Source: Sphingobacteriales bacterium
Lineage (GTDB): Bacteria; Bacteroidota; Bacteroidia; Chitinophagales; LD1
Assembly (NCBI GenBank): GCA_018262795.1
Contig: JADFDM010000011.1
Span: forward strand, 44,143-108,142
Direction: 5' to 3'
DNA: 64,000 bases
In this document: piece by piece, positions 5,721 to 61,404 of the stretch
Numbering within the stretch: the stretch's first letter is position 1
Layout: every line of letters begins with the position of its first letter
Made by a program: the position numbers and the translations under genes
The notes under the pieces: generated by a model
What the model was told of the DNA's origin: nothing
Seen by the model: only the letters and a program-made list of their open reading frames with translations
The model's database searches: none

Positions 5721-5992
5721 GTTATCTGAAACGACACCATTCCCCCCGAAATAGATGCCGCTCAGAAAACAATGCTAAAATAGCTAAACCTTCCTCCTCC
5801 TTGTAAAGTGCCATACATAATTTTTATTCTCATGGCTCCCCTGCCGGTAAGATGAGTGCCAAGAAACTTGCGCAGCGTTCCCGAAATGGGAAAGTCAGCT
5901 ATAACCTATTGTAAGTATCTGGAAATTAGTTATGTTGCTCTCTATCGGAGATAGCTTTATGTTTTCACCACTCCGGTATTAAAAAGTAGAGC

Positions 5993-45021: not shown

Positions 45022-46584
45022 TTACCGCAATCCTTTCTTCCAATCCACTTTTTCGTTCACCACTTCTTTGAGGCGCTCAATAGAAATACGCTCTTGTTTC
45101 ATGGTGTCGCGGTCGCGGATAGTTACGGTGTTATCGTTGAGCGTGTCGTGGTCAATGGTAATGCAGAAAGGGGTGCCAATCGCATCCTGCCTGCGATAGC
45201 GCTTGCCGATGTTGTCCTTCTCTTCATAGAAACATTTGTAATCCCATTTCAGCAGGTCAAATACTTCACGTGCTTTTTCTGCAAGGCCATCCTTCTTCAT
45301 CAACGGGAACACTGCGATTTGCACCGGAGCTAAAAACGGTGGCAGCGCCAGCACGGTTCTTTCGCTGCCATCTTCTAACTTCTCTATTCGGTAACCATTG
45401 CACATTACGGCCAAAAAGGTGCGATTCAAACCAATGGAGGTTTCTACCACATAAGGAACATAACTCTGATTCAACTCCGTGTCGAAGTACTGTAATTTCT
45501 TCCCCGAAAGCTCTTGATGACTTTTCAAATCGAAATCGGTTCGGGAATGAATGCCTTCCACTTCTTTAAATCCAAACGGAAATTTGAATTGAATATCCAC
45601 AGCCGCATTGGCATAGTGCGCCAGTTTTAGATGGTCGTATAGCTTTAGGCTCTCCTCCGCAAAGCCGAGCGAGCGATGCCATTTCCAGCGCGTTTCTTTC
45701 CATTGTTCGTACCACTGCATCTCGGTGCCGGGGCGCACAAAAAACTGCATCTCCATTTGCTCAAATTCGCGGGTGCGAAAAATGAACTGACGAGCTACAA
45801 TTTCATTGCGAAAGGCCTTGCCTATTTGCGCAATGCCAAAAGGAATTCGCTGGCGCGAAGTGTTGAGCACATTTAGAAAGTTGACAAAAATTCCCTGCGC
45901 TGTTTCAGGTCGCAGATAAATGGTGTTAGCTTCATCGGCCACCGAACCTACCTCTGTGGCAAACATCAGATTGAACTGTCGCACATCCGTCCAGTTGCGG
46001 GAACCACTCACTGGGCAGGCAATTTCTAAATCAATAATAATTTGCTTTAAATCTGCGAGGTCATTCCCCTCTAATGCCTTTTTGAAACGGTTTTCAATAG
46101 CTTGTAGTTTCTCCGTATTTCGCAGCACATTCGGATTGGTTTTTAGAAACATTCCTTTATCGAAGCTCTCTCCAAATTTCTTTTCTGCTTTGGCCACTTC
46201 CTTCTCGGTCTTCTCCTCAATTTTAGCCATCGCCTCTTCTATCAACACATCGGCCCGGTAGCGCTTCTTCGAATCTTTATTATCAATCAACGGATCATTA
46301 AATGCATCTACGTGCCCACTGGCTTTCCAAGTTTTAGGGTGCATAAAAATAGCGGCATCCAAGCCCACAATATTCTCGTGGAGTTGCACCATCGCTTTCC
46401 ACCAATACTGCTGAATGTTATTCTTTAGTTCAATACCGTAAGGGCCGTAATCATACACTGCCCCCAATCCATCATATATTTCAGACGAAGGGAAAATGAA
46501 TCCATATTCCTTGCAATGGGAAATAATTTCCTGAAAAAGGCCTGCTCGTCCGGCAGGTGGTTGCTGTGTATTCTCTTTACTCAT
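45022..46584 (-). CDS. glyQS: glycine--tRNA ligase (dimeric class II type)
   Basis: The ATG at 46584 gives MSKENTQQPPAGRAGLFQEIISHCKEYGFIFPSSEIYDGL..., 520 aa, with the class II motifs FRNEI and GIGLNR-like SIGLNRTF. Confidence 0.92.
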   Translation of the reverse strand: MSKENTQQPPAGRAGLFQEIISHCKEYGFIFPSSEIYDGLGAVYDYGPYGIELKNNIQQYWWKAMVQLHENIVGLDAAIFMHPKTWKASGHVDAFNDPLIDNKDSKKRYRADVLIEEAMAKIEEKTEKEVAKAEKKFGESFDKGMFLKTNPNVLRNTEKLQAIENRFKKALEGNDLADLKQIIIDLEIACPVSGSRNWTDVRQFNLMFATEVGSVADEANTIYLRPETAQGIFVNFLNVLNTSRQRIPFGIAQIGKAFRNEIVARQFIFRTREFEQMEMQFFVRPGTEMQWYEQWKETRWKWHRSLGFAEESLKLYDHLKLAHYANAAVDIQFKFPFGFKEVEGIHSRTDFDLKSHQELSGKKLQYFDTELNQSYVPYVVETSIGLNRTFLAVMCNGYRIEKLEDGSERTVLALPPFLAPVQIAVFPLMKKDGLAEKAREVFDLLKWDYKCFYEEKDNIGKRYRRQDAIGTPFCITIDHDTLNDNTVTIRDRDTMKQERISIERLKEVVNEKVDWKKGLR

Positions 46585-46684
46585 GGGGGCGAAAATACAA
46601 GACAAAACACGATAGGCAATAGTTCCGCATTACAGATAATCTTAGTTTTGGCGCGGTGTTTGAAAAAGTCATCACAAAAAACTT

Positions 46685-47044
46685 ATGAAGAAGAAGCTGC
46701 TATGGATTGTATTGCTCTGCGCCATTACTCCACTGAATTATGCGCAAACGGACGACTGGGAATGGATCCGAGAGGTGAGTCAGGTAAAAGCGAAAATGAA
46801 ACTGTTAGAGAATAAAGAAACCTGGGTGATCATACCGGACGATAATCAGAACATGCGCTACATGTCACAGCAACTACCCGAAGAATACAAAAAGGACGGC
46901 TTGGCCATTACCTTTAACGGGTGGATCGGAAAAATACCTCCCAATGTGCGCATGTTAGCCACTCCGCTAAAGCTAACAAAGGTATGGGTGAGCTGCGCTG
47001 ACAAGAAAAAGTATAAGTTGAAAAAAGGCAAGTACACTTTCTAA
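46685..47044 (+). CDS. small secreted hypothetical protein
   Basis: 119 aa with signal peptide MKKKLLWIVLLCAITPLNYAQ. Confidence 0.55.
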   Translation: MKKKLLWIVLLCAITPLNYAQTDDWEWIREVSQVKAKMKLLENKETWVIIPDDNQNMRYMSQQLPEEYKKDGLAITFNGWIGKIPPNVRMLATPLKLTKVWVSCADKKKYKLKKGKYTF

Positions 47045-47119
47045 TAATTGTAAAGCCCTTTTGCTCGATTTGTTTTTATCGTTTGGTAATTCGTAATTCG
47101 CCAGTAGTAATAATTCCGC

Positions 47120-48031
47120 ATGTCAGTTAAAGTATCTCATCTCAGTAAAATTTACGGGTCACAAAAAGCAGTGGCTGATATTTCCTTTGAAGTACACAAA
47201 GGGGAAGTGCTCGGATTCTTGGGACCCAATGGTGCGGGGAAAAGTACTACGATGAAAATTCTGACCTGCTTTATTCCTCCCACCACGGGTAGCGCCTTCG
47301 TATGCGGACACGACATTACAGCCGAGCCTTTAGAAGTAGCAAAGAAAATTGGCTACCTGCCCGAAAGCAATCCACTTTACTTGGATATGTATGTGCGCGA
47401 GTATCTCGAGTTCATGGCCGGTTTGCATAAACTCGGCAAAATTACCACCGCTCGCATCAATGAAATGATTGGCGTGACCGGCCTCACAGCCGAGTGCAAA
47501 AAGAAAGTAGGCCAACTTTCAAAAGGATATAAGCAAAGAGTAGGGCTGGCGCAGGCCATGCTGCACGATCCTGAAGTGTTGATATTGGATGAACCTACCT
47601 CCGGGTTGGATCCAAACCAGTTGGTCGAAATCCGTTCGCTGATTAAGCGACTTGGCAAAAATAAAACCGTCATTTTTTCTTCACACATAATGCAGGAAGT
47701 GCAGGCTGTAGCCGATCGCGTAATTATTATCAACAAAGGAAAGATAGTAGCCAATGACACTACCGAACATCTGCAAAACCGCGAAGGGAACGAGATGCTC
47801 GTGACGGTAGAGTTTAAGCAAACAGTAGAGAAATCGCTGCTGGGCGCAATTAAAGGAGTGAAATCGCTGGAGCAATTAAAAGATGGCCGATGGAGTTTTG
47901 TATCGGCCGGGAAGAAAGACCTCCGGGAAGACATTTTCAATTTTGCTAAAGAGAAGAACCTCACCTTGCTGCATCTGAATAAAGAGGAATACTCGCTCGA
48001 GGAAGTGTTCAAACAGCTAACTCGACCCTAA
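47120..48031 (+). CDS. gldA: ABC transporter ATP-binding protein, GldA-like (gliding-motility-associated)
   Basis: 303 aa with Walker A GPNGAGKST, signature LSKGYKQR and Walker B LILDEPTSGLD. The N-terminus resembles Bacteroidota GldA. The symbol is tentative. Confidence 0.7.
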   Translation: MSVKVSHLSKIYGSQKAVADISFEVHKGEVLGFLGPNGAGKSTTMKILTCFIPPTTGSAFVCGHDITAEPLEVAKKIGYLPESNPLYLDMYVREYLEFMAGLHKLGKITTARINEMIGVTGLTAECKKKVGQLSKGYKQRVGLAQAMLHDPEVLILDEPTSGLDPNQLVEIRSLIKRLGKNKTVIFSSHIMQEVQAVADRVIIINKGKIVANDTTEHLQNREGNEMLVTVEFKQTVEKSLLGAIKGVKSLEQLKDGRWSFVSAGKKDLREDIFNFAKEKNLTLLHLNKEEYSLEEVFKQLTRP

Positions 48032-48075
48032 ACTTTTCATTCAATTCAGCGGAGAATTTGAAAGAAATTAGCGAG

Positions 48076-48145
48076 AACCTGTAAGCTGCCTGTGGGAGAA
48101 CTTAATCTGAAAGACTGTTTGGCCAGCAGGCAGACAAATCACAAT
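48076..48145 (-). repeat. degenerate CRISPR repeat relic carrying two insertions
   Basis: The + strand reads AACCTGT-[aagctgc]-CTGTGggAGAACTtAATCTGAAAG-[actgtttggccagcaggcaga]-CAAATCACAAt. This matches the repeat segments aacctgt / ctgtgaaagaactgaatctgaaag / caaatcacaac. Confidence 0.75.
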
Positions 48146-48299
48146 CTTAGAAAGGATGATATTTTCCCGGTTTGCGTTGTGAATGAACTTTAACGCAATA
48201 GATGGAGACAAGACTACTCTTGTGGGATAGCGCAAATTCCTTCAATGCAGAGTGCAAGCTTTTGTACAAAATGTGAAACCGAAAATATGAACGCTTGAA

Positions 48300-48350
48300 A
48301 AAGAAAAAAGGGGTGCAAAAGCAGGTTCTGCATCCCCTTTAATCATTTTT
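48300..48350. terminator. bidirectional hairpin terminator at the trailer end of the CRISPR array
   Basis: GGGGTGCA(48310-48317)...TGCAtCCCC(48329-48337) is flanked by an A-rich run on the left, which reads as a T-run on the minus strand, and by TTTaatcaTTTTTTTT on the right. Confidence 0.6.
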
Positions 48351-48405
48351 TTTCTTTCAAAAAACAGGCGAAGAACAAGTGCTGGTAAGGGTTTCAGCAA
48401 AATCA

Positions 48406-51400
48406 CTTGTAACCTGTCTGTGAAAGAACTGAATCTGAAAGCAAATCACAACCCTACTATCGCGCTAAAGTTTCCATAAGTCCTTGTAACCTGTCTGTGA
48501 AAGAACTGAATCTGAAAGCAAATCACAACCACCGGATATAAGCACGTTACAACCTGCCCCTTGTAACCTGTCTGTGAAAGAACTGAATCTGAAAGCAAAT
48601 CACAACGTCTATCACTTGTTGAATATCTGTGTAAAACTTGTAACCTGTCTGTGAAAGAACTGAATCTGAAAGCAAATCACAACCGTTCAACTATCGGGTC
48701 TCCAACTCCTGTGCTTGTAACCTGTCTGTGAAAGAACTGAATCTGAAAGCAAATCACAACAAAAGGTAAGTCGTTAACTGCGGAAGAGCCTTGTAACCTG
48801 TCTGTGAAAGAACTGAATCTGAAAGCAAATCACAACCAGAACGCAATAAGGCAGTTAGCAGGTTTGCTTGTAACCTGTCTGTGAAAGAACTGAATCTGAA
48901 AGCAAATCACAACACAATGTGTTAGGCACGTATAACGCTTCTGCTTGTAACCTGTCTGTGAAAGAACTGAATCTGAAAGCAAATCACAACATTGCTGAAT
49001 TACAATCACAATGCAAATATCTTGTAACCTGTCTGTGAAAGAACTGAATCTGAAAGCAAATCACAACATAAAACAAAAAGCAATGGCAAAGATTATCCTT
49101 GTAACCTGTCTGTGAAAGAACTGAATCTGAAAGCAAATCACAACTTTATACCTAAAGTTGTTTCGCTTGCCGTACTTGTAACCTGTCTGTGAAAGAACTG
49201 AATCTGAAAGCAAATCACAACAACAACTTGCTTTTGCAAATCATATCTTGAACTTGTAACCTGTCTGTGAAAGAACTGAATCTGAAAGCAAATCACAACT
49301 GGTTCTTTGCGTTTGAAAGTATAATGATGCTTGTAACCTGTCTGTGAAAGAACTGAATCTGAAAGCAAATCACAACCTATAACATTTTTTTGATAAAATT
49401 AAATCACTTGTAACCTGTCTGTGAAAGAACTGAATCTGAAAGCAAATCACAACCACCTGATAACAGGAAGCAAACACCACTCACTTGTAACCTGTCTGTG
49501 AAAGAACTGAATCTGAAAGCAAATCACAACCGGTGCAACGCTTCACCGAATTTTCAAAAACTTGTAACCTGTCTGTGAAAGAACTGAATCTGAAAGCAAA
49601 TCACAACCTTTGCAATGCGGGTCAACATCCCTGTCAGCTTGTAACCTGTCTGTGAAAGAACTGAATCTGAAAGCAAATCACAACCTTAAAGAGCAGGTTG
49701 TAACAGGCATGGGGCTTGTAACCTGTCTGTGAAAGAACTGAATCTGAAAGCAAATCACAACCATTACAATGCGGGTCAACATCCCTGTCAGCTTGTAACC
49801 TGTCTGTGAAAGAACTGAATCTGAAAGCAAATCACAACTAGCAATCTCAAAGGCTACACTCAGGTGGTCTTGTAACCTGTCTGTGAAAGAACTGAATCTG
49901 AAAGCAAATCACAACAGACATGAAGGCATAGAACAAGTAAGACACTTGTAACCTGTCTGTGAAAGAACTGAATCTGAAAGCAAATCACAACTATGGCAAT
50001 AAGTATGGCCGCATAACCCCTCTTGTAACCTGTCTGTGAAAGAACTGAATCTGAAAGCAAATCACAACCCCTCTTTTCATCTTACTTTCGCGCACGTCCT
50101 TGTAACCTGTCTGTGAAAGAACTGAATCTGAAAGCAAATCACAACCAGACCCGCGAGGTTCTGCCGGAGGCGGAGCTTGTAACCTGTCTGTGAAAGAACT
50201 GAATCTGAAAGCAAATCACAACCTACTTTCGCTGCTTGTAGTGTTTGCTTTTCTTGTAACCTGTCTGTGAAAGAACTGAATCTGAAAGCAAATCACAACA
50301 AACAAAAACTATTTCCATTCACTGGCAACCTTGTAACCTGTCTGTGAAAGAACTGAATCTGAAAGCAAATCACAACTAACATCCTCTGATGGAACAATAA
50401 ACATTGCTTGTAACCTGTCTGTGAAAGAACTGAATCTGAAAGCAAATCACAACGACAATCACTGGGCACACTTCTAAGAATGGCTTGTAACCTGTCTGTG
50501 AAAGAACTGAATCTGAAAGCAAATCACAACCTGTGGCTGGACGTTAATAATTGAACTTTTCTTGTAACCTGTCTGTGAAAGAACTGAATCTGAAAGCAAA
50601 TCACAACTTATAGCAAAAGTTACAGGTATGGGAACTTCTTGTAACCTGTCTGTGAAAGAACTGAATCTGAAAGCAAATCACAACCTATCCCAAGTTTCTC
50701 TCATTTCTTGTTTACTTGTAACCTGTCTGTGAAAGAACTGAATCTGAAAGCAAATCACAACTTGCTTAACTTTTTCATGGTGTTTAGTTTTCTTGTAACC
50801 TGTCTGTGAAAGAACTGAATCTGAAAGCAAATCACAACGTTAGTTCTGCTTTCACTTAACGTTATAGTCTTGTAACCTGTCTGTGAAAGAACTGAATCTG
50901 AAAGCAAATCACAACTTCCCCGTTGTAGTTGTCTTTGAAATCAACTTGTAACCTGTCTGTGAAAGAACTGAATCTGAAAGCAAATCACAACTTTTCAGCA
51001 ATCCATCTTTTTGTAAATGTTCTTGTAACCTGTCTGTGAAAGAACTGAATCTGAAAGCAAATCACAACTGTTGATTATCTGCTAATCCATACGTCATACT
51101 TGTAACCTGTCTGTGAAAGAACTGAATCTGAAAGCAAATCACAACATAACACTGTCATCCCAATAAGCAATCCTACTTGTAACCTGTCTGTGAAAGAACT
51201 GAATCTGAAAGCAAATCACAACATTGTTAGATAAGAACATAATAGATTGTGGCTTGTAACCTGTCTGTGAAAGAACTGAATCTGAAAGCAAATCACAACC
51301 AATCTCCCGTATTGCCCCTAAAAACACTGCTTGTAACCTGTCTGTGAAAGAACTGAATCTGAAAGCAAATCACAACGAATACAAAGCGGTATATCTTTTC

Positions 51401-51683
51401 GCTGCACTTGTAACCTGTCTGTGAAAGAACTGAATCTGAAAGCAAATCACAACACAGGGTGGCCTGTGGAGTCACTGCACGCTCTTGTAACCTGTCTGTG
51501 AAAGAACTGAATCTGAAAGCAAATCACAACATATCTTGCGGTATTACTCATTGCAATATTCTTGTAACCTGTCTGTGAAAGAACTGAATCTGAAAGCAAA
51601 TCACAACTAAGTTCAACATGCCATATGTGACAGTCACTTGTAACCTGTCTGTGAAAGAACTGAATCTGAAAGCAAATCACAAC
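48406..51683 (-). CRISPR. CRISPR array with 43 identical 47-nt repeats and 42 spacers
   Basis: The + strand repeat is cttgtaacctgtctgtgaaagaactgaatctgaaagcaaatcacaac. On the minus strand it reads GTTGTGATTTGCTTTCAGATTCAGTTCTTTCACAGACAGGTTACAAG. I located every repeat start by hand (48406, 48483, 48560 ... 51561, 51637). Spacers are 37 of 30 nt, 4 of 29 nt and 1 of 31 nt. Minus-strand transcription is inferred from tracrRNA complementarity. Confidence 0.97.
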
Positions 51684-51783
51684 TTCACTAAATCCGCTAC
51701 CTGAATGAATTAAAATGCGAAAGAACTCAAAGTATGCTTGCCCAACTGATAGGAAAATCTCCGTATAAACCGATTCGCCCTCA

Positions 51784-52137
<354 letters not shown>

Positions 52138-52219
52138 TTATTTTTGTCTTCGGGAGAGCTTTCTACACTACCTCAACAAATAAGCCGGAAACGCTCTCGT
52201 TTATTCACGGCAGCCATAT

Positions 52220-53158
52220 TTATCGGTACCGCTTACTCCTTTCCATTACTTCGAACTTAGGAAACAGTATTTTTTTCACTTCGCCTTCAAAGCATTTGGC
52301 AAGTGTAGCGGTGCTTCGCTGCGCAGCAACAAATAGAGGGCTTTTATCTTTCTCTAACAGCACATCTACCGAAGCCACATTCAGCAATCGGTTTTTGTTT
52401 TCGGTGTTCAATTCGCGGTAGTCTTTTTTCTCTTTTATTAAGCTGCGAACGATGTAATCCACGTAAGGGCGATACGGCTCCATGATATCATCGGCAAGGC
52501 AGTAAGCATTATATCTGTTGCGGTGAAAAATGCCGAGGGTGGGCAGCAGCCCCGACCCCACTAAACTGCGAGCGACAATAGCGCGGATAATAGCATAACC
52601 ATAGTTCAGTAGATGATTCGGAGGCGAGCCATCACGCCTGCGGTAAAAATCCATTTCGGGTGGAAATAAGTTCCTCCAGTAGTAAGCTGCAGCCGTGGCT
52701 TCGGCATTGCCTTTATCGCCACTGCGAATATCCGCTGCTAAAGAAAGCAGCGGGCCGGTATCGGTTTCAAAATATTCCAACACAGCCGCCTGATTCTGAA
52801 TTTTGGCAGCTATGGTCTGCGCCCACAGTTGCTTTTTCATCGGCTCGGTAGCTTCTATCTGTGCTTTGAAGCGTTCGCTTTGTATGCTGTGCCCGTCTAA
52901 GTTGAGCAGCAAGCCCACGGGATGGTGGGTGGCATTGCAAGTGATCACGGCCACATTATTTTCAAGAAGTTTATGGAGAGTGGTTTGGGTGATGGTGATT
53001 TGTTGATGATCTAATACCACCACTCCTACATCTTCTATTGGCACCGTTTTATCTTCCGCATCCTCCATACCGGCAATACCTTTATAGCTCACCACCAATT
53101 GCTCTTGACGAGTTTTCAGATAGGCCGGATTGCCGAAATAAAGGGTGCGCTTGATCAT
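52220..53158 (-). CDS. cas1: CRISPR-associated endonuclease Cas1 (type II)
   Basis: 312 aa beginning MIKRTLYFGNPAYLKTRQEQLVV..., with NHLLNYGYAIIRAIVARSL and GIFHRNRYNAYCLADDIMEPYRP. It starts 6 nt after the cas9 stop. Confidence 0.93.
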   Translation of the reverse strand: MIKRTLYFGNPAYLKTRQEQLVVSYKGIAGMEDAEDKTVPIEDVGVVVLDHQQITITQTTLHKLLENNVAVITCNATHHPVGLLLNLDGHSIQSERFKAQIEATEPMKKQLWAQTIAAKIQNQAAVLEYFETDTGPLLSLAADIRSGDKGNAEATAAAYYWRNLFPPEMDFYRRRDGSPPNHLLNYGYAIIRAIVARSLVGSGLLPTLGIFHRNRYNAYCLADDIMEPYRPYVDYIVRSLIKEKKDYRELNTENKNRLLNVASVDVLLEKDKSPLFVAAQRSTATLAKCFEGEVKKILFPKFEVMERSKRYR

Positions 53159-53164
53159 AAAAGG

Positions 53165-56100
53165 TCATTTAAAACATTCCTCCCCTTTGGCAACTATCTC
53201 ACCTAAGATATTAAGTCGAACCTTGATAACATTTAGCTTGTCATGCGACAATTTAAAAGAACTCAATTTAATACACTTAGAAATTTCTTTAGCACTGGGA
53301 TAAGATTGGGCGTTTGAACTTTTCTTCGTTTTCAAAAGCGAAACATAACCGTATTCATATTCTTTGCCGTTTGTGGTAACAATACTTGAGGAAAGTCCCT
53401 TTACAATATATAATCGCTCTTTCAATTGGGTTACATTTCCCCAGTTGTAATTTTCTTTTTCCTTTTCATCAATATAAAGAGCAACTACATCCCCCTGTTT
53501 GAGCCACTTACAATCTTTATTAATTCCTATTTCATTTTTTTCATCATGATACAATTTACCCCCCTCATAATATAAACCACTATTAGCATTCTTTTTACTT
53601 ACAGCCTTATAGAATGAAATAATCTCAAAACCCCGATTACTTCGCTTGTAGTTTCCCATTTTGTCAAAATTATTTTTATTGTATAGAGCCATTAGAGCAT
53701 TGTTATCATTTTCTACCCATCTATTGTTAAAGATCAGATTATCATCTTCATCTTTAGCGACAAGTTGTATAAGCGATCTATCGGTATTATATCGCTGTCT
53801 TATGGATTTTACAATTGGTAGGGGCTTTCCCTTCTTTTTACTGGTGTGCTTTTCAGGTGTATTAGGGCTTGTTCTATAAAATGGATTCTTTTCCATTTCA
53901 CTTTTAAGAAACGCATTATTACCTAAGGCTTCAAGTCTTTGTCGAGTTATTGAGTAAAGTTCATCATCTGGTATATAATGCCATTTTAATTGCCCTTTTA
54001 CTTTATAGTCAAGATCGTTTGAGTATTTAAATAAAACTTTATCCTTTCTTTGATCATCAAACAATTCAACCCTGCGAACAGTTGTTCCATTTCTTTTACT
54101 ATAAAATGCGTCTTTGTGTAATTTACCTTGTGGAGCATAGGTTTCATGTACTATCACCCCATCCTTGGTTTTAATTCTGTTCTTACGTTTTTTAATCAAT
54201 GTTTGCTTCTCGCTGTGGCTCACTAAAATTGCCGCAATACTTTCTTTTACCTGTTGGTAATCAAAACTTCTTTCAATTTTATCTCTGTTTCTTAAATGCT
54301 TTTGCTCTCGGATAGCGTTGTAAGTACTAAGGTCTTTAATAATTATAGGTGAACAGCAAGCCGTGATAACTGCATCAATTGCGTGATGCCTATGGTCACT
54401 ACGATCTTTCTTACCGCTCTTATCTCTAAACTGTTTGAATTTTTCAAGTTCAAAAAACCAATACAATAAATCATTTCGTGTTTGCTTAATGTATTCGTTC
54501 AGGCTTTTATCCTCTGAAATATTTTTCCAATCAATCTTAAAGTCAGTGGTGTTATACTTCGATTCATACCATTGCTGGTAATCTTTTTTTATCCTGTAGT
54601 AGTTGATATAAATTTCATCCATATTAATGTCAGTTTCTTCCTCGTAACGTATCTTATCCAATAAATTAGAAAGTGTCCAATCATAATTTCTTAGCTCGGA
54701 TGTAGCTGAACCATTGGTAAATTGAACATTTTTGCACACCTCCTGCATTTTAGTTCGGGTGTATTTGGCTATGTATGATGTGTTGCTAATTTGGCTGCTC
54801 GAAAAACCTTCACTTACTGTTTCAGCTAAGAATAATTCCTTTTTCCCATCACCAAAATGGTGATACTTGCTTTTCATTCTTGCTTTAAATGATTGTACCG
54901 CATCTTCTCCTTTTCTACTTAAATATTCGATTGGCGTCATACTGCCCTTTTCAGCGTTAGTAATACTATAAGTTAGGGTTTTGTTATTAAACGAATCATC
55001 CAAGCTTCTACTTAATGGCATGATGTGTTCAATTTCAACATCTGAGCCAAAGCAATCAGTAAGGTTTATTACTGCTCCTGTATATGGGCACCGTCTTCCA
55101 CACTCCAACCAAAGATGGTGCTTAAGTCTATCTTGCTCTTTTGTGATTTTCGAGAAGTTTTTAAACTCAGCTATGAAGAACTCATCTTCTTCGTTCATGT
55201 TCATTTGCAGCCATAACTCATACTTTTTCACTATGGGACTGTTTTTGTAGATGTCATATTTAAAGCCAAGTTTTTCTTTATTGCCCGTTAAATAATCTGC
55301 GTATTGCTGTCTTAACTTGTCTTTATCTGCATTCTTTCTTCTTTCAGCTTCTCTCTCTTGTCTTGGTTTACGCAACTGTCTGGTAGATTCAATCCTTATT
55401 TCAAATGTATTTCTGTCTATTTCGGTTTCATATTTTTTGAGAATTGCATTTACCAGTTTAATGGTCTTCGATAAAGCTCGCTCAACTACAGGATTTCGTA
55501 ACTCCTGATACGCCAGCTGTGATATTTTCTCTTTAATTTGAACTTTCGCACCTACAGTGCCGTCTTCATTTACATAACCTCTCTTTGTTGCAACTAATGC
55601 ATCATGTTCGTTCAACCCATCACGCATAAATGGAAGAATTGCATTTAAAACCTTTGTAGAATAAGACCCATAATCAGACACTAACCCTTTAGCAAGTAAA
55701 CTCTTTACTTGCTCTTCAGTGAAATTCCATTTTGTTGGTTCAGCTAAAACGCACATCAGCCAGTCTTGCTCTTTAAATAAACCATCTTTCGCCATATATA
55801 AATGATGCCATAGGTCAGATAATTGGCTGGTTATTCTCCTTGATTGCATTTGGAACTCACCTTTCTTAATCTTCTGAAATAAATCAGGACCTAAAGCCTC
55901 CTTAAATCCTGCGTAAGTTACATTCCCAATAATTTTAGTTTCATTCTTTTCATCGCTTACTACGTCTTCATCGTTTTTATCAATGAAAAATTCAAATTCC
56001 GCTTCATTTTTTATAAATCCGTTATCCTTTAAAATTTTCCCAAAGTATGGCTTACCCTCCTCTTTAACCTTTTTCGTTCCTTTAAAATATACCTCCATAT

Positions 56101-57277
56101 TATCCATTAGTTCGCTGGCTAAAACTGAGAGCCATTTTTTTTCTAATGATTTTCTGAAAATATCCTGTTCCGGTGCTGAGTACTTTATTTGATGAAGCTT
56201 TTGCCAAATACGGAACTCTTGAAAAAGCGGATGACTCTTAGGGCAGGCTTTCTTTGCTTTCCTTTTCCAAATCCGTTTCTCCTTTACTGTAACATTATCT
56301 CCCTCGACTATTTCAACCTTATCCACATCAAATTGCCCTTTTTCAAATTGACAGTTTGAAACATACTTCTTCTGGGATTTTAAAGGCCTTTGATAATAAA
56401 TGCAATATTCGCGAATATGCCAGTAGTTTGTTTTCTTAAATTCTTTTAGAGCAGCAATTCGTTCCATATACGGTTTCTTCATTATCGCATCGAACTCGGC
56501 TTTACTTCCTGTTAGCTTGTCTGGGAAATATTGTTTTTGTGCAGCCCAAATCATATCAAACTCTTTCAAGTACATGTCCCGTAGAGTATATCTGCCATGA
56601 TGTCGTCTTATACCATTGCTATTGAAGAGTATTATATCGTTTTCATCTCCGTTGTTATAAGCCCTTTCATCAATCGGTTCATTATAGTTATGCCATTTGT
56701 CCTTCTCATAAAGCACTTTTGCCTTTTCGTGCATTTTGAAAAAATACTCCCCAATAGTTTTCGCACCAGATTTATCAATAAGGTGTTGTAGCTTTTCGTA
56801 TTCTGCTTTTACTACTCCTGTTTCTTTAGCGTTCTCCTGAGGATTTTTAGCGTTGCTTTTAAAGCCTCGATATTTATTCAACAACATAAAAATCCTACCA
56901 ATTTCTTCTGCTGGTATTCTATTTTCCGGCTTAATGGCATCCGCTCTCAGTTTGTATAATTCATAAGATTGTCCTTTGCCCTTCGCTTTATGATATAACT
57001 CGTATTTAGGCAGCATGCCTAAATTTTTCAAGGCAATTTTTAAATTTTCTCTTCTTTGCTTAAAGCGATACCTCATTCTGCTTGCACCACGGTAAGCCCT
57101 CCTTTGTTCATTTTTGGTTTTTTCTTTATTGCTTACGTCATCCACAATCGTTCCTATCGGGAAAATGTGAACTCCTGTTTTAATAATCTCAATTCTGCCG
57201 TCCTTAAATTCTTTAAGCAAGCACCAGCCCAAAGAATTTGTTCCAATATCTAGCCCGATTACATGTTTAAATTCCAT
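53165..57277 (-). CDS. cas9: type II-C CRISPR-associated endonuclease Cas9
   Basis: 1370 aa. RuvC-I is GLDIGTNSLGW (D10) and the bridge helix is RRAYRGASRMRYRFKQRR (59-76). RuvC-II is FEIRIESTR (625-633) and HNH is DVEIEHIMPLSRSLDDSFNNKTL (H751, N765). RuvC-III is DHRHHAIDAV (961-970). No csn2 or cas4 gene is in the locus. Confidence 0.95.
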   Translation of the reverse strand: MEFKHVIGLDIGTNSLGWCLLKEFKDGRIEIIKTGVHIFPIGTIVDDVSNKEKTKNEQRRAYRGASRMRYRFKQRRENLKIALKNLGMLPKYELYHKAKGKGQSYELYKLRADAIKPENRIPAEEIGRIFMLLNKYRGFKSNAKNPQENAKETGVVKAEYEKLQHLIDKSGAKTIGEYFFKMHEKAKVLYEKDKWHNYNEPIDERAYNNGDENDIILFNSNGIRRHHGRYTLRDMYLKEFDMIWAAQKQYFPDKLTGSKAEFDAIMKKPYMERIAALKEFKKTNYWHIREYCIYYQRPLKSQKKYVSNCQFEKGQFDVDKVEIVEGDNVTVKEKRIWKRKAKKACPKSHPLFQEFRIWQKLHQIKYSAPEQDIFRKSLEKKWLSVLASELMDNMEVYFKGTKKVKEEGKPYFGKILKDNGFIKNEAEFEFFIDKNDEDVVSDEKNETKIIGNVTYAGFKEALGPDLFQKIKKGEFQMQSRRITSQLSDLWHHLYMAKDGLFKEQDWLMCVLAEPTKWNFTEEQVKSLLAKGLVSDYGSYSTKVLNAILPFMRDGLNEHDALVATKRGYVNEDGTVGAKVQIKEKISQLAYQELRNPVVERALSKTIKLVNAILKKYETEIDRNTFEIRIESTRQLRKPRQEREAERRKNADKDKLRQQYADYLTGNKEKLGFKYDIYKNSPIVKKYELWLQMNMNEEDEFFIAEFKNFSKITKEQDRLKHHLWLECGRRCPYTGAVINLTDCFGSDVEIEHIMPLSRSLDDSFNNKTLTYSITNAEKGSMTPIEYLSRKGEDAVQSFKARMKSKYHHFGDGKKELFLAETVSEGFSSSQISNTSYIAKYTRTKMQEVCKNVQFTNGSATSELRNYDWTLSNLLDKIRYEEETDINMDEIYINYYRIKKDYQQWYESKYNTTDFKIDWKNISEDKSLNEYIKQTRNDLLYWFFELEKFKQFRDKSGKKDRSDHRHHAIDAVITACCSPIIIKDLSTYNAIREQKHLRNRDKIERSFDYQQVKESIAAILVSHSEKQTLIKKRKNRIKTKDGVIVHETYAPQGKLHKDAFYSKRNGTTVRRVELFDDQRKDKVLFKYSNDLDYKVKGQLKWHYIPDDELYSITRQRLEALGNNAFLKSEMEKNPFYRTSPNTPEKHTSKKKGKPLPIVKSIRQRYNTDRSLIQLVAKDEDDNLIFNNRWVENDNNALMALYNKNNFDKMGNYKRSNRGFEIISFYKAVSKKNANSGLYYEGGKLYHDEKNEIGINKDCKWLKQGDVVALYIDEKEKENYNWGNVTQLKERLYIVKGLSSSIVTTNGKEYEYGYVSLLKTKKSSNAQSYPSAKEISKCIKLSSFKLSHDKLNVIKVRLNILGEIVAKGEECFK

Positions 57278-57307
57278 TTGCGTTTGTTTTTTGTTTTATT
57301 AATATTG
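57277..57307 (+). promoter_or_regulatory. candidate Bacteroidota-type promoter for the tracrRNA
   Basis: A -33-like TTTG lies at 57277-57280, overlapping the cas9 ATG complement at 57275-57277. A -7-like TAATATTG lies at 57300-57307, one mismatch to TAnnTTTG, with a 19-nt spacer. The predicted start near 57311 coincides with the start of the anti-repeat. Confidence 0.4.
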
Positions 57308-57310
57308 CTA

Positions 57311-57386
57311 TTGAAAGCTTATCACAACAAGGATTATTCCTTAGGCGATTAAGCCCTGCCCTTGGTTCGTCCCGGGGCTTTTTTTT
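57311..57386 (+). ncRNA. tracrRNA candidate (anti-repeat, nexus-like hairpin, terminator)
   Basis: TTGAAAGCTTATCACAAC (57311-57328) pairs with repeat nt 1-18 (GUUGUGAUUUGCUUUCAG), forming 16 pairs around a 2-nt U/U internal mismatch. It is followed by AAGGA-ttat-TCCTT (57329-57342) and the GC stem AGCCC...GGGCT plus T8 (57352-57386). Confidence 0.75.
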
Positions 57387-57624
57387 ATCCCCCATTCCCC
57401 GCCATTACATATCTTCTACAAATGCACCTCCACCTAAAAGAATAGCATGACCAATTCCGTCAGCCATGTAAAAATATCCGGGGAGTAAAGCCATCATGTT
57501 TTAATTTTTCAGCTAAAATAATTCACCACTGCGCCACCTATTTGCGCGGCATGTAATTGGCGAACGCAGATTGCCTCTTTACACTCGCCTCTCTCACTAC
57601 CCCTCTGTCTTGCTGATTAGATTC

Positions 57625-57655
57625 CAAATATATATTTCCTAGCTGTGAAAACAAA
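57625..57655 (-). promoter_or_regulatory. candidate Bacteroidota-type promoter pointing toward cas9
   Basis: The minus strand has TATATTTG (+ coordinates 57625-57632, an exact TAnnTTTG) with TTTG 19 nt upstream (+ coordinates 57652-57655). It is the only exact -7 box I found in the 660-nt gap upstream of cas9. Confidence 0.3.
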
Positions 57656-57937
57656 AATGAGTTTTAAAAGAATTAGGCGCTGCCCTAAAGTGGCCGCCTC
57701 TTGGCGGTAATGTCGGAAGAGTTAATGGTGTAATGGTTATTCGTTAATCGTTTATTAGAGATACTGCCGGCTATTTACAATAAATTGTTTTGAAGGGAAT
57801 GGTATGATTTTTTGATTGGCTCCAGCGAGATGCCGGCTAATGTGGGATTCAGAAATTTGAAAAGGAGGGAATTTAGAAAGGAGGGAATTCGCTTTCCGTT
57901 TCTTTCCTTTTACTCTTGCGCCACCTTCGCGAAGGTT

Positions 57938-60310
57938 TTATTTCCCGGCCACTACTTCCTGATATTTCCGGAAGTATTCATCAGCCAGTGCAGTATTTCC
58001 TTTGTTGCGATAGCTCACACTCATATTCATGTAGCCTGCCGGATACTTAGGGTTTAACTCGATTAGCTTTTGCGAAATGGCGATGGCCTCATCAAACTGA
58101 CCGCTGAGGCCGTAAGCCACGCCTAAATCTTCGTAATATAATTCGGCTTTGGGATTCATTTCAATCGCCTTTTTGAGGAACTCAATCGCCTGCCCCAAGT
58201 TATGCCCCACCTTGCCGTAGGCGGTTCCTATGAGATAGTAATCGGCTGCATCGGCCGGCTTTAGTTCATTGCCGCGTTGCAACCAGTAATTCACAGAGTC
58301 GGGCTGATTTATTTTTGCAAAAGCCTGTGCCATCAAATAGCGAATTTCCATCTGCTCGGGCTTCATGTCGTACGCCTTTCGCAAATTCTCAATGGCTTTG
58401 GCTCCATTGTTAGCATCGTTATAGACCACGCCCAGATTAAAGTAGGCATCGTAGTAGCCACCCACTCTGTAAGCTCCGGCTTTTTCGTACACCTCCACTA
58501 CTTCCTCTGCCTTGTGGTCGCGCTTATACAGGGCATTGCCCAGCAATAGCCATGCATTGCTATGAGTGGGGTAAATGCGCAGCGCTTCGTGGAGATGATA
58601 GATGGAGGAGTCTAAAAGCAGGCGAGAGATGGAGCTATCGGGCAACATATTAATCGCATTGAGTTCGGCTTCGGTTTTTGTGCCACAGCTCAGATCGTTG
58701 AAGATAGTCTTAATCATTCCGCTGTCGCGCAAGGCAGTAATATTTGATCCGGCTGCTTTGGTGAGGTCGCCCCCTACCGAGGTTTGTATTTTGGCCGAGT
58801 TAAAACTCACAGAAACATCTCTGCGGAATAGTGTAAAACTATCCTTCCAGTCGAAATTGCGGGAGAAGGTTTTAGCGGAATAAAGTCCGAGGATGACTAA
58901 CAAAGTAGCTCCCAGAAATTTTGGAGATTTAATGTATTTCACTAACAGGTAAGCCAGCACAATGCAAAAGCCCAGAGAACTCATGTAAATAAATCGCTCG
59001 TTCATCAACACCCCAACAGTAAACAGCAAATTGGTGACGACCGAAAAGGTGATGAAATAAAACAAGATACCATAGGCCAAAGGGTTTTTCTTTTGGATGG
59101 TGAACAAGGTATAAAACCCAAGCGCTGCGTTGATGACAAAGGAGAGAATAAACTTGCCATCGTTCAGATCCACATAGGGGATTTGATTAAAGTAGTAATC
59201 GTGAGTGAGCGGATGAGGAAATACTAATAGCTTAAAATAGTAGAGGAAAGTGAGCACTGCGGTGGCAAAATGTTGGGTGCCGGTAGCCAACAGAAAAGGG
59301 TTGTTCAAAATTTCGGGAGAATCTTGCGTAATGCCCGCCTGCGTAAATTGAGCGCGGAGTATTAAAAAGATGGCCACCGGCACCGCATAAGCGCCAAGTG
59401 TGATCGCATAGTCCTTTATTTTTGCTTTGGTAAAAAAGTAAAAGGTTAAAGGGATAATAGCGAAGAAGGTGATCGCATTTTCTTTTGAAAGCAGTGCGAT
59501 AAAAAAGATGACCGCACCCCAAACTACATGCCTCATTTTGCCGGTTTTGGCATAGCGCACCGCAGCTAAAAGTGCCAGCAGAGAGAAGAGCATACACATC
59601 ACTTCATCGCGACCTTTGATGTTGGCCACCGCTTCGGTATGAATGGGATGAGCCGCATACAGCAGCGTAATAATAAAGGGGAGAGAAAAGTAAAAGGGGG
59701 TTCCTTTTTTAGGGGGGAATAGTTGCTGCAACAAATAATACAGCACCAACCCCGTAAAACCAAAAAGCAGGATATTTATTAAGTGGCTGAGGAAGGGATT
59801 GAGATACGGATCGTTATCCGTCATAATAATATTCTTGTCGGTGATTACTTCGCGTTTGTCGCCTCTGATATGGCGCATCATTTCATATTCCACCGAGAGG
59901 GTGACCATACTCAAGGGGCGGTAACGCCCTCCGCTCACTAATTTTGCACCTCGCTCGCCAAAGAAGCCTTCAAACATGTCGTGCGTAAAGTGGTCTTTGA
60001 TACCTCCAAAGCCTTTCTTGGTGAATTTATTATCGGTGACCACAATGGTATCGTCAATCGCATAGCGGTTTTGCAGGGTATTGCTATACAACAATAGCGA
60101 GAAAATAAAGATGATGAGATAGGGCGTGAAAGAGGGAAACTGAATGGCGGCAGAAGAAACGGGCGGTAGAGGAGTGCTTACGGTTGTCTGCTTGATACCG
60201 GTATTGACTGTTTTCTTCTGTTTGGCCACTGTAAAAATTTTGTGTGCAAAGTAAGCAAGTGTTATTTGGCAAACAACCTTCGCCTTGAACCTGCCAACGC
60301 TTGGGGGCAA
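57938..60310 (-). CDS. polytopic membrane protein with C-terminal TPR repeats (PMT/TMTC-like glycosyltransferase family 39-type architecture)
   Basis: Up to 790 aa. About 10 TM helices follow RYAIDDTIVVTDN. The C-terminal ~250 aa carry TPR repeats (AWLLLGNALYK, YFNLGVVYND, YYLIGTAYGK, YEDLGVAYGL). The start is uncertain, either TTG at 60310 or GTG at 60229. Confidence 0.7.
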   Translation of the reverse strand: MPPSVGRFKAKVVCQITLAYFAHKIFTVAKQKKTVNTGIKQTTVSTPLPPVSSAAIQFPSFTPYLIIFIFSLLLYSNTLQNRYAIDDTIVVTDNKFTKKGFGGIKDHFTHDMFEGFFGERGAKLVSGGRYRPLSMVTLSVEYEMMRHIRGDKREVITDKNIIMTDNDPYLNPFLSHLINILLFGFTGLVLYYLLQQLFPPKKGTPFYFSLPFIITLLYAAHPIHTEAVANIKGRDEVMCMLFSLLALLAAVRYAKTGKMRHVVWGAVIFFIALLSKENAITFFAIIPLTFYFFTKAKIKDYAITLGAYAVPVAIFLILRAQFTQAGITQDSPEILNNPFLLATGTQHFATAVLTFLYYFKLLVFPHPLTHDYYFNQIPYVDLNDGKFILSFVINAALGFYTLFTIQKKNPLAYGILFYFITFSVVTNLLFTVGVLMNERFIYMSSLGFCIVLAYLLVKYIKSPKFLGATLLVILGLYSAKTFSRNFDWKDSFTLFRRDVSVSFNSAKIQTSVGGDLTKAAGSNITALRDSGMIKTIFNDLSCGTKTEAELNAINMLPDSSISRLLLDSSIYHLHEALRIYPTHSNAWLLLGNALYKRDHKAEEVVEVYEKAGAYRVGGYYDAYFNLGVVYNDANNGAKAIENLRKAYDMKPEQMEIRYLMAQAFAKINQPDSVNYWLQRGNELKPADAADYYLIGTAYGKVGHNLGQAIEFLKKAIEMNPKAELYYEDLGVAYGLSGQFDEAIAISQKLIELNPKYPAGYMNMSVSYRNKGNTALADEYFRKYQEVVAGK

Positions 60311-60599
60311 AACAGGTATAAGTTTTCGAAGCGTGGCCTCCTTGCGAGAGGCTTTTAGTCATTTTCGGTTGACCCTCATCTTGGTAGATTTGTCCATAAC
60401 CAATAGGCCTATGATAATCGTTTGGAGGAGGGTGAAATTCTGATTGAAATCGCCTTTCGTAATTTTCTGAAAATCCAAAAGGAGGCACTAACTGAATGTC
60501 CTCATCTATATTCACTGTACTATTCACAATGTATAAGCGTGAGTGATAAGCGAAAAGTGGGTTTGTTCATTGTATCTATCCTTTGACACCCACTGTACT

Positions 60600-61280: not shown

Positions 61281-61404
61281 AACAGTAGGTTGGGTGATGT
61301 AAACTGCCTTTCATGTTTGGTTTTTTTCGTGCGGTATGTTTAATTAACGGAGAGGCTTCTGATTTCGTATGTATTTTCTTAGTATTACACAGCCGGGAAG
61401 AGGT

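Follow-up and report, generated by a model that had tools for sequence, protein, structure and literature searches.

The type II-C loci of Neisseria meningitidis and Campylobacter jejuni contain cas9, cas1, cas2 and a tracrRNA gene, and their repeats carry promoters (PMC12080349). New spacers are added at the repeat that is transcribed last, and the opposite, oldest end of the array is degenerate (PMC12080349). Repeats of 45-50 bp are tied to Cas9 clade X (Gasiunas et al. 2020, PMC7606464), the members of which (Ghy2, Orh, Cme1, Ffr, Phi, Psp, Wvi, Cca1 and Cga) are II-C enzymes of the Bacteroidota type, 1345-1535 aa long, with widely varying PAMs (PMC7606464). CbCas9 of Chryseobacterium is presented, in a paper citing the original work, as a PcrIIC1-associated type II-C Cas9 (Zhang et al. 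2024, cited in PMC13153721).

The locus described here lies in a 64,000-nt stretch of DNA, referred to as the window (Table 1). Its initial annotation as a complete minimal type II-C system, composed of cas9-cas1-cas2, an array and a divergent tracrRNA, is confirmed by the parts found and their family matches. Very probably it is a working immune locus with all needed parts, an inverted array cassette and acquisition at the leader end.

Table 1. Features of the CRISPR-Cas9 locus in window coordinates
Feature	Position	Strand	Basis
Diverged solitary repeat	48078..48145	(-), array orientation	Repeat-family search and local alignment to the repeat
Hairpin terminator (predicted)	48310..48337	(-)	RNA fold -20.8 kcal/mol, z = -4.2, 0/200 shuffles as good
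Acquisition leader (putative)	48338..48405	(-)	Motifs common to the cas2-proximal array flank of related loci
CRISPR array	48406..51683	(-), crRNA sense	43 identical 47-nt repeats and 42 spacers, exact-match scan
Array old (upstream) end	51684..51783	(-)	Degenerate repeat core 51716-51737, sequence read
cas2 (112 aa)	51784..52122	(-)	PF09827, 1e-18; TIGR01573, 73 bits
cas1 (312 aa), type II (NMENI) class	52220..53158	(-)	TIGR03639, 290 bits (cutoff 120); PF01867
cas9 (1370 aa)	53165..57277	(-)	TIGR01865, 416 bits (cutoff 100); Pfam HNH_4, RuvC_III
Putative tracrRNA -7 promoter box, Bacteroidota-type	57300..57307	(+)	TAATATTG, one mismatch to TAnnTTTG
tracrRNA	57311..57388	(+)	Repeat co-fold, terminator scan, conservation in 18 related loci
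Segment absent from near-identical strain	48453..57577	(.)	9125 bp; blastn against L090

Comparison with characterised systems

The locus shares with clade X the long repeats (45-50 nt) and a similar protein size, in agreement with the annotators' view that long GTTGTG... repeats are typical of Bacteroidota II-C loci (PMC7606464). Ghy2 and Orh repeats begin with the same 16 nucleotides (GUUGUGAUUUGCUUUC). In the tracrRNA the nexus, AAGGAUUAUUCC, is shared as well, with hairpins and a poly-U tail after it, and the listed tracrRNA of Cca1 also begins with GAAAGC. The guide-RNA design at the repeat 5' end and the nexus thus matches that of biochemically characterised clade X enzymes, which the Cas9 itself resembles. 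The proteins differ, however, being 26-38% identical in their best stretches (seven orthologs, N-terminal ~400 aa each). Past the nexus the tracrRNA continues with UUAGGCGAUUAAGCC..., as opposed to GUUGUGAAAACAUU... in clade X, and the window duplex contains a conserved 2x2 U.U internal loop, whereas clade X duplexes are typically fully complementary (PMC7606464).

Among solved structures, CbCas9 (PDB 8iyq) is the best match to the Cas9-family profile (268 bits, E = 2e-78). It too is a large Bacteroidota II-C Cas9 (1442 aa), but the single-sequence match, 121 bits in three stretches, is distant. Unlike the CbCas9 locus, the window locus contains no pcrIIC1-like gene; cas9 and cas1 are separated by 6 nt (the cas9 stop ends at 53165, the cas1 ATG lies at 53158) and cas1 and cas2 by 97 nt. 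By these PDB matches and N-terminal identities, none of the characterised or solved orthologs compared is close, let alone near-identical.

With the N. meningitidis and C. jejuni systems the locus shares the cas9-cas1-cas2 and tracrRNA gene set, the degenerate oldest end and, by its probable polarity, the leader at the transcriptionally last repeat (PMC12080349). It differs from these reference loci in its 47-nt repeat (36 nt in Neisseria and Campylobacter), which lacks a recognisable promoter box, and in an array that is co-directional with the cas operon and not insulated by an upstream terminator; its own relatives are arranged otherwise. The Cas9 is ~300 aa larger than, and distant from (E about 1e-29), ~1083-aa Cas9 chains such as 6jdq and 6kc8, listed in the PDB table without an organism and presumably from N. 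meningitidis.

The protein was proposed as a candidate new Cas9 ortholog. It is indeed uncharacterised but not new, since an identical Cas9 is already present in NCBI and more than 2000 homologues are found in databases. The closest other sequences are an unnamed Logan protein (P0002, 80% identity), a Cas9 of the Chitinophagales bacterium MAG TGS_BAC7 (L021/P0003, 79%) and one of a Cyclobacteriaceae MAG (L001, 66%), all uncharacterised metagenomic sequences. Their loci have the same gene order and tracrRNA position, a near-identical tracrRNA and a 47-nt repeat that agrees in its first 18 nt; in L021 a further ORF of 177 aa separates cas2 from the array. The Cas9 thus belongs, with nothing remarkable about it, to a large and well-populated Bacteroidota group, and the locus is unusual only in its flipped array and in the existence of a locus-free strain.

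cas genes and tracrRNA

The sizes and minus-strand location of the three cas genes are as first annotated, and all three ORFs are full length relative to their family models. Cas9 residues D10 (RuvC-I), E630 (RuvC-II), H751, N765 and N774 (HNH) and H965 and D968 (RuvC-III) do not vary among 37 aligned homologues, in support of the claim of intact nuclease motifs. As had been noted, csn2 and cas4 are absent, here in a Pfam scan of the 37.4-63.8 kb interval that covered ORFs of 130 aa or more.

The tracrRNA had been placed at 57311-57386, on the strand opposite to cas9 and upstream of it, and this is confirmed. The RNA comprises an anti-repeat (57311-57328), a nexus hairpin AAGGA/TCCTT (57329-57342), a second hairpin (57344-57355) and a terminator hairpin (57358-57378) with a T8 tail. 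Co-folding with the repeat yields 8 bp, the 2x2 U.U loop and up to 8 further bp (-43 to -48 kcal/mol). An equivalent RNA occurs divergently upstream of cas9 in 18 related loci, with compensatory changes at five pairs; they occur in hairpin 2 (GC to AU in six sequences) and at four pairs of the terminator stem. Since the plus-strand anti-repeat complements the repeat as read on the minus strand, crRNAs are encoded by the minus strand. The putative promoter box resembles sequences in the relatives, at least seven of which, as judged by eye, have an exact TAnnTTTG that precedes GAAAGC by 4-6 nt, while in several others the box has one mismatch; the transcription start assigned here is putative.

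Array, leader and old end

The exact-match scan reproduced the annotated 43 repeats and 42 spacers. In crRNA sense the 47-nt repeat reads GTTGTGATTTGCTTTCAGATTCAGTTCTTTCACAGACAGGTTACAAG, and the spacers are 30 nt (37), 29 nt (four) or 31 nt (one) long. The spacer set, described as unique, is not fully independent, as spacers 25 (49762-49791) and 27 (49608-49637) agree at all but 2 of their 30 positions. Both differences, at positions 26 and 29, lie at the PAM-proximal end; the two spacers may target the same site and reflect a past arms race, which we count in favour of a working locus.

The 100-nt gap between cas2 and the array had been regarded as the leader. By the probable polarity it is instead the old, non-acquiring end, with a degenerate repeat core, and degenerate or half repeats likewise lie opposite the leader in relatives L004, L022, L015, L019 and L002. 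The terminal repeats of relatives have lost the tracr-pairing 5' half and kept the 3' half. The leader is assigned to the far end (48310-48405) because conserved motifs and a strong terminator are found there, in agreement with the II-C rule of acquisition (PMC12080349). Motif 1, TGATTTTGCTGAAACCCTTACCAG (48382-48405), abuts the last transcribed repeat, and motif 2, ATGATTAAAGG, lies at 48336-48346; both occur in the corresponding flank of relatives, which suggests that the region acts as an acquisition leader. With II-C polarity, the newest spacer would be 48453-48482 and the oldest 51608-51636. The terminator is predicted to stop array transcription and, flanked by an A-tract and a T-tract, is potentially bidirectional, facing a convergent ABC gene. 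Beyond leader and terminator, adjoining this ABC-ATPase gene, lies the diverged solitary repeat, which carries a 21-nt insertion (48114-48134) and is present as an identical copy in the independent contig L090.

Inversion of the array cassette

By motif count, the window contains 43 repeats on the cas9 strand and none antisense, versus 0-1 same-strand and 3-48 antisense repeats in 20 distinct related loci. In alignments with L021, L001 and L003 the cas genes are colinear and the array matches are reversed. In P0002, L021 and L001 the array is antisense to cas9 and its leader lies beside cas2; in the window the entire cassette, from the old end through array and leader to the terminator, is flipped by comparison with 20 of 20 related loci examined. 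The initial annotation had passed over this inversion.

An assembly artefact that conceals an ordinary antisense array could give the same picture: the window is probably part of a metagenome-assembled contig, the relatives' repeats have partly palindromic termini (GTTGTG...CACAAC) and the cas2-side junction is represented by this one contig only. Arguing against this possibility is the independent Logan contig L090, from another run, which is 100% identical over 48032-48452, from the ABC gene across the diverged repeat, terminator and leader into the repeat, so the leader-side arrangement is not artefactual. Moreover, the sequence at both junctions is unique and outside the repeats, each end looks as expected, with the degenerate repeat beside cas2 and the leader and terminator beside the ABC gene, and neither flank, scanned separately rather than against the other, contains inverted repeats that would explain a mis-join. 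We therefore regard an artefact as very improbable.

Expression and proposed mechanism

Because the array is inverted, its co-transcription with the cas operon, as suggested in the initial annotation, is plausible. Read-through from cas9-cas1-cas2 might then supply most of its transcripts as a single long pre-crRNA, in the II-A manner, and the repeats would have no promoters. It is co-directional with cas2 at a distance of 100 nt, a terminator scan detected no minus-strand terminator-like site between them (51684-51783), and the strong terminator just past the leader lies where such a transcript would end. In keeping with the initial annotation, a box scan identified no TAnnTTTG sequence with up to one mismatch in the repeat and none in the cas2-array gap; the only one-mismatch box in the scan, TTATTTTG (51785-51792), lies inside the end of cas2. 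However, array and cas operon run towards each other in 20 of 20 relatives, and an A-tract/hairpin/T-tract equivalent to the window terminator lies between cas2 and leader in several flanks read (such as L003, L004, L019 and L021), so this clade must have another promoter source. The retention of the 3' half in the relatives' terminal repeats and the promoters in Neisseria and Campylobacter repeats also argue against read-through as the chief source. In addition, an interrupted duplex of ~14-16 bp seems too short to let RNase III process a long precursor readily. On balance, we consider expression mainly by read-through rather unlikely.

In the preferred model, crRNAs would arise mainly from promoters in the 3' part of each repeat, as is established for the II-C systems of Neisseria and Campylobacter, with cas operon read-through as an additional source in this locus. 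Such putative promoters would account for the tolerance of a flipped cassette; against them stand the lack of a recognisable -7 box in the repeat and the inconsistent positions of the boxes in the relatives' repeats. The first ~16-18 nt of the minus-strand repeat (GUUGUGAU-UU-GCUUUC[AG]) would pair with the ~75-nt tracrRNA, which is encoded immediately upstream of cas9 and transcribed away from it. The duplex would load Cas9, and PAM-flanked DNA would be cut by the HNH and RuvC sites. Cas1-Cas2 would add spacers at the leader-proximal, last transcribed repeat (48406-48452) and not at the cas2-side repeat.

A search for protospacers, advised for deriving the PAM, gave no match for any spacer in GenBank phages, PLSDB plasmids, IMG/VR, related loci or the window itself.

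A near-identical strain without the locus

Contig L090 is 99.8% identical to the window over 45739-48452 and 99.5% over 57566-62132 (blastn), with clean identity, by eye, again from 57578. It retains the leader and one repeat, and 31 unrelated nucleotides replace the segment that in the window contains 42 spacer-repeat units, cas2, cas1, cas9 and the tracrRNA. Since so close a strain does without the locus, the latter is not essential and may be in the course of being lost. The description of the system as currently active is thus overstated, given this strain, which lost or lacks the locus, and the protospacer search.

The same observations could indicate a decaying or silent relic, in which the flip took the array out of its usual setting and the population is losing the system, and the G+C content of the CRISPR island (35-41%, flanks 43-45%) fits this interpretation. 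Against it stand the full-length cas ORFs with intact catalytic residues, the identity of all 43 repeats, the intact tracrRNA, promoter box and terminator, which match those of relatives, and the preserved leader motifs; with an environmental host that is poorly sampled, a lack of protospacer matches is to be expected. A relic is improbable, and a working locus remains the preferred interpretation.

To judge from its sequence, the host is an uncultured Chitinophagales (Bacteroidota) bacterium and the locus is chromosomal; the best named matches of the adjacent glycine-tRNA ligase are Chitinophagales MAGs (up to 84%), and the nearest Cas9 with a named source (79%) is likewise from a Chitinophagales MAG.

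Gene content and subtype

The locus is an ordinary type II-C CRISPR-Cas system whose Cas9 is an uncharacterised member of a populous clade. Gene coordinates were taken from a six-frame ORF list and families were assigned by profile searches. The cas1 and cas2 genes lie directly downstream of cas9, with 6 nt between cas9 and cas1 and 97 nt between cas1 and cas2, and the array is located 100 nt from cas2. An alignment of 37 Cas9 homologues, 44-100% identical, revealed that the residues D10, E630, H751, N765, N774, H965 and D968 are invariant. Neither csn2 (II-A) nor cas4 (II-B) was found in a Pfam scan that covered ORFs of 130 aa or longer from 37.4 to 63.8 kb; the flanking genes encode an ABC ATPase, a glycine-tRNA ligase of class II, a TPR protein, a DUF218 protein and transporters. 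With a Cas9 containing RuvC-like and HNH domains, an adaptation module of cas1 and cas2 only, a tracrRNA and an adjacent array, the system is assigned to subtype II-C.

Tandem Repeats Finder delimited an array with a 77-nt period at 48405-51683, in which an exact search placed 43 identical 47-nt repeats (48406-51683) and 42 spacers of 29-31 nt. The initial annotation is thereby borne out in its main label, type II-C, and in the details on which it relied: the three genes with their sizes and strand (ORF list and profile matches), the intact nuclease motifs, the lack of csn2 and cas4, and the numbers of repeats and spacers.

Features of the CRISPR-Cas locus in window coordinates
Feature	Position	Strand	Location	Size, sequence or evidence
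Hairpin terminator, strong	48310-48337		beyond the leader, distant from cas2	-20.8 kcal/mol, z = -4.2
Leader motif 2	48336-48346		array end distant from cas2	alignment with relatives
Leader motif 1	48382-48405		array end distant from cas2	alignment with relatives
Degenerate repeat core	51716-51737		within the 100 nt adjoining cas2	
cas2	51784-52122	minus		112 aa; PF09827, TIGR01573
cas1	52220-53158	minus		312 aa; type II Cas1 TIGR03639, 290 bits
cas9	53165-57277	minus		1370 aa; TIGR01865, 416 bits (cutoff 100); Pfam HNH_4 and RuvC_III
Putative -7 box	57300-57307			TAATATTG; one mismatch to TAnnTTTG
tracrRNA anti-repeat	57311-57328	plus	34 nt upstream of the cas9 start codon	TTGAAAGCTTATCACAAC

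The tracrRNA

The anti-repeat of the tracrRNA is followed by three hairpins and then by a run of eight T residues; the terminator was picked up by a terminator scan. In the co-fold with the repeat, 8 bp are followed by a 2x2 U.U internal loop and then by up to 8 further bp, a pairing that establishes GTTGTGATTTGCTTTCAG..., on the minus strand, as the crRNA sense of the repeat. The same RNA occurs at the same position in 18 related loci, with a nearly invariant anti-repeat and nexus; nearly all of them retain the anti-repeat GAAAGCUUAUCACAA, and L002, L007, L018 and L022 carry single or few substitutions. Five pairs of hairpin 2 and the terminator stem show compensatory changes on both sides; in 6-8 sequences, for instance, GC is replaced by AU. 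In many relatives an exact Bacteroidota -7 box (TAnnTTTG) was recognised by eye 4-6 nt upstream of GAAAGC. Given this position of the box, the transcript of the window probably starts near 57312 and would be about 75 nt long, in agreement with the tracrRNA coordinates originally proposed. An Rfam scan of 47500-58500 with E-values up to 1 gave no match; hence no curated family covers the tracrRNA or the repeat.

One of the related loci, L008, contains a second tracrRNA-like copy after the first, upstream of cas9 and antisense to it, at about 5830-5870. The anti-repeat of this copy (GAAAGCAAATCACAAT) shows complete complementarity to the repeat and precedes the same nexus, and L008 looks like a locus with tandem tracrRNAs. 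In the window, about 550 nt (57389-57937) separate the tracrRNA from the TPR gene, and the cas9 promoter must lie within them. No convincing ORF lies in this interval: the longest one wholly internal to it comprises 38 aa, and an 81-aa ORF (57812-58057) extends from it into the TPR gene. The last 360 nt of the interval are common to a strain that lacks the locus (see below).

Relation to characterised Cas9 proteins

The exact Cas9 of the window is already present in NCBI, on a 143-kb contig, and its nearest other relatives, one unnamed and one from a Chitinophagales MAG, share 80% and 79% identity with it, respectively. Homologues with E-values of at most 1e-10 number more than 2000. A scan of species-representative genomes gave 148 related stretches, mostly in Bacteroidota MAGs, and a metagenome scan with the single Cas9 protein gave 5 loci only. 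The glycine-tRNA ligase encoded beside the locus has its best named matches, up to 84%, in Chitinophagales MAGs. Cas9 genes of the same family, and arrays whose repeats have the same GAAAGCAAAxC end, also occur in MAGs labelled as Planctomycetota (Anaerohalosphaeraceae, Phycisphaerales), Parachlamydiaceae and Gammaproteobacteria (L059, L019, L009, L024), which reflects either horizontal transfer or contamination during binning.

Only distant matches were obtained when the single Cas9 protein was searched against the PDB, the best being 9ar4 (1e-34), a Cas9 chain of about 1082 aa that we take to be GeoCas9, and CbCas9 (8iyq, 3e-34). The family profile ranked CbCas9 first in the PDB, with 268 bits. 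CbCas9 acts together with the accessory protein PcrIIC1 (PMC13153721). Unlike CbCas9-type systems, the window locus contains no pcrIIC1 (PIN-domain) gene; the gaps of 6 and 97 nt between the cas genes leave no room for such an accessory gene, and no PIN-domain match was found among the flanking ORFs scanned.

Repeats of 45-50 bp have been tied to clade X, the long-repeat Bacteroidota group that includes Ghy2, Orh, Cme1, Psp, Cca1 and Cga (Gasiunas et al. 2020, PMC7606464). The PAMs of the clade are diverse and include NARNCCN, NARTC, NAANRCN, NNAAAR, BRTTTTT and others (Gasiunas et al. 2020, Supplementary Data 2). The 47-nt repeat of the window falls within this size range and shares its first 16 nt with the repeats of Ghy2 and Orh. 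The nexus of the tracrRNA, AAGGAUUAUUCC, is identical to that of clade X and is followed in the window by two hairpins and U8, but the 3' half of the tracrRNA differs. Moreover, clade X duplexes are described as fully complementary without a bulge, whereas that of the window has the conserved 2x2 U.U internal loop. In blastp comparisons with the first approximately 400 residues of each of seven clade X proteins, a set that left out Cca1 and Cga, the best stretches were 26-38% identical to the window Cas9. The N-termini of Cca1 and Cga resemble those of Cme1 and Psp.

The low N-terminal identity, the differing tracrRNA 3' half and the U.U loop, taken together with the common nexus and repeat start, characterise the window Cas9, as judged from sequence, as an uncharacterised member of a known and already sampled kind that is near-identical to nothing tested. 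The proposal of a new ortholog thus holds insofar as the enzyme is uncharacterised and no near-identical protein has been tested, but its novelty was overstated, considering the exact protein in NCBI, the more than 2000 homologues and the clade X-like guide. The Cas9 is one more uncharacterised ortholog in a group that is abundant in metagenomes and whose guide-RNA design has already been sampled biochemically; its value as a tool therefore hinges wholly on its PAM and activity. The size of 1370 aa offers no advantage in this respect.

Inverted orientation of the array

With cas9 placed on the plus strand in all related loci, the repeats extracted from them all read ...TGAAAGCAAATCACAAC on the cas9 strand, and the crRNA sense is consequently antisense to cas9. 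Counts of the repeat motif gave 3-48 antisense copies and 0-1 same-strand copies in all 20 distinct related loci, whereas the window has 43 copies on the cas9 strand and none antisense. In blastn alignments cas9, cas1 and cas2 are colinear with those of L021 (Chitinophagales MAG TGS_BAC7), L001 (Cyclobacteriaceae MAG) and L003, and the array matches are reversed. The contigs that encode P0004 and P0006, which are among the closest relatives of the Cas9, stop short of the array and are uninformative on its orientation. The usual layout of the clade, seen in the 20 related loci, in which the array is antisense and the terminator and leader lie beside cas2, is not that of the window.

Two short and conserved motifs occur between cas2 and the array in the relatives: ..TTgGCTGAAAgnCTTnCtGG abuts the repeat, and AGGATTAAAAA lies at a distance of approximately 55-65 nt. 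Several of these loci (e.g. L003, L004, L019, L021) have an A-tract, a hairpin and a T-tract on the cas2 side of the motifs, and degenerate or half repeats occur at the array end opposite the leader in L004, L022, L015, L019 and L002. The leader motifs were demonstrated by alignment because they are too short for blastn; a blastn homology search with the array flanks gave no matches. In the window the leader motifs and a strong terminator are found at the far end of the array and a degenerate repeat core beside cas2, which marks the 100 nt between cas2 and the array, initially annotated as the leader, as the probable old end; the leader motifs lie at 48336-48405.

In type II-C systems spacers are acquired at the transcriptionally last repeat, and the first repeat is the oldest and frequently carries mutations within its first 15 nt (Feussner et al. 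2025, PMC12080349). The window array, as far as can be read from its sequence, fits this published architecture, with the predicted leader downstream in the crRNA sense and the degenerate, putatively oldest repeat upstream. By the same polarity the newest spacer would be that at 48453-48482. A single inversion of a cassette consisting of the old end, the array, the leader and the terminator is the simplest history. Inverted repeats that might have mediated the flip were not found within either flank, each flank having been scanned alone. The flipped cassette indicates that the array, leader and terminator of a II-C system act as a self-contained unit that can move.

Beyond the leader, at 48078-48145, lies a solitary diverged repeat with a 21-nt insertion after repeat nt 11. 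In the most distal repeat of L001, just beyond 14216, repeat nt 18 is followed by a palindromic insertion of 19 nt (TCCCGATGGCTATCGGGAG); such insertions in terminal repeats are thus recurrent. In L021, the closest named relative, an extra ORF of 177 aa (11734-12267, minus strand) is located between cas2 and the array leader.

Transcription of the array

As a consequence of the inversion the array is co-directional with cas2, and since the terminator scan revealed no terminator-like site between the two, read-through from the cas operon into the array is possible, as the initial annotation suggested. The flipped cassette offers a naturally occurring instance of a II-C array open to read-through from cas2. 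It has been argued that II-C systems usually guard against read-through into the array from outside (PMC12080349), and in the cases studied each II-C repeat carries its own promoter (Feussner et al. 2025, PMC12080349). The window repeat is devoid of a TAnnTTTG box with up to one mismatch, and such boxes in the repeats of relatives occur at inconsistent positions. A scan for sigma-70-type promoters gave 24 sites as compared to 23.7 expected from shuffles, that is, a number not above that of shuffles.

A further-reaching proposal, which we put forward as a speculation with the balance of probability clearly against it, combines these observations: transcription of the cas operon would run on into the array of the flipped locus with no terminator to insulate it, in the manner of II-A systems, and the Cas9 would belong to a sub-lineage that is marked by the conserved U.U loop and the distinct 3' half of the tracrRNA and whose PAM would differ from those of the characterised clade X enzymes. 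If this were true, the locus would provide a natural test of how a II-C system copes with outside transcription and extraneous crRNAs, and also a further large Cas9 with a new PAM.

A near-identical strain lacking the locus

An exact look-up of the ABC ATPase protein led to a 15-kb Logan contig of run SRR30542736 (SRR30542736_687689, designated L090). It is 99.8% identical to 45739-48452 of the window, a segment that spans the ABC gene, the diverged repeat, the terminator, the leader and exactly one repeat, and then continues with 31 unrelated nt (AAGTGAAAACAGAGCTTGGGCAGAGTTCAAC). Alignment by blastn resumes at 57566, with clean identity from 57578, and extends to 62132 at 99.5%. The strain therefore lacks 48453-57577 (9125 bp), comprising the other 42 repeats with the spacers, cas2, cas1, cas9 and the tracrRNA. 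An assembly artefact at the leader side of the window was considered, but L090 reproduces this junction in an independent assembly, which argues against it.

In length and position the 31 nt of L090 correspond to a spacer adjoining the leader-proximal repeat, and their sequence has no match elsewhere in the window. Either a deletion in an ancestor that had one newer spacer or an event of another kind may account for this arrangement; loss and gain of the locus are both possible. The CRISPR-Cas segment (48000-57000) has a G+C content of 35-41% and the flanking genes one of 43-45%, as would fit an acquired island. Together the two strains mark precisely where an entire CRISPR-Cas locus was gained or lost in a single population.

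Spacers

A blastn search of the whole array against GenBank phages gave chance matches only (E = 4), and one against the PLSDB plasmids only a repeat-like array in a Phocaeicola record along with chance matches. Seven scans of IMG/VR with exact cores of 20-22 nt (spacers 42, 41, 39, 38, 37 and 36, and a core shared by spacers 25 and 27) revealed no protospacer, nor did blastn-short searches of the 90 fetched loci and of the rest of the window. As all protospacer searches were negative, no PAM was derived. Spacers 25 (49762-49791) and 27 (49608-49637) are the same 30-mer except at positions 26 and 29, at the PAM-proximal end, which points to acquisition on two occasions from variant forms of a single target site.
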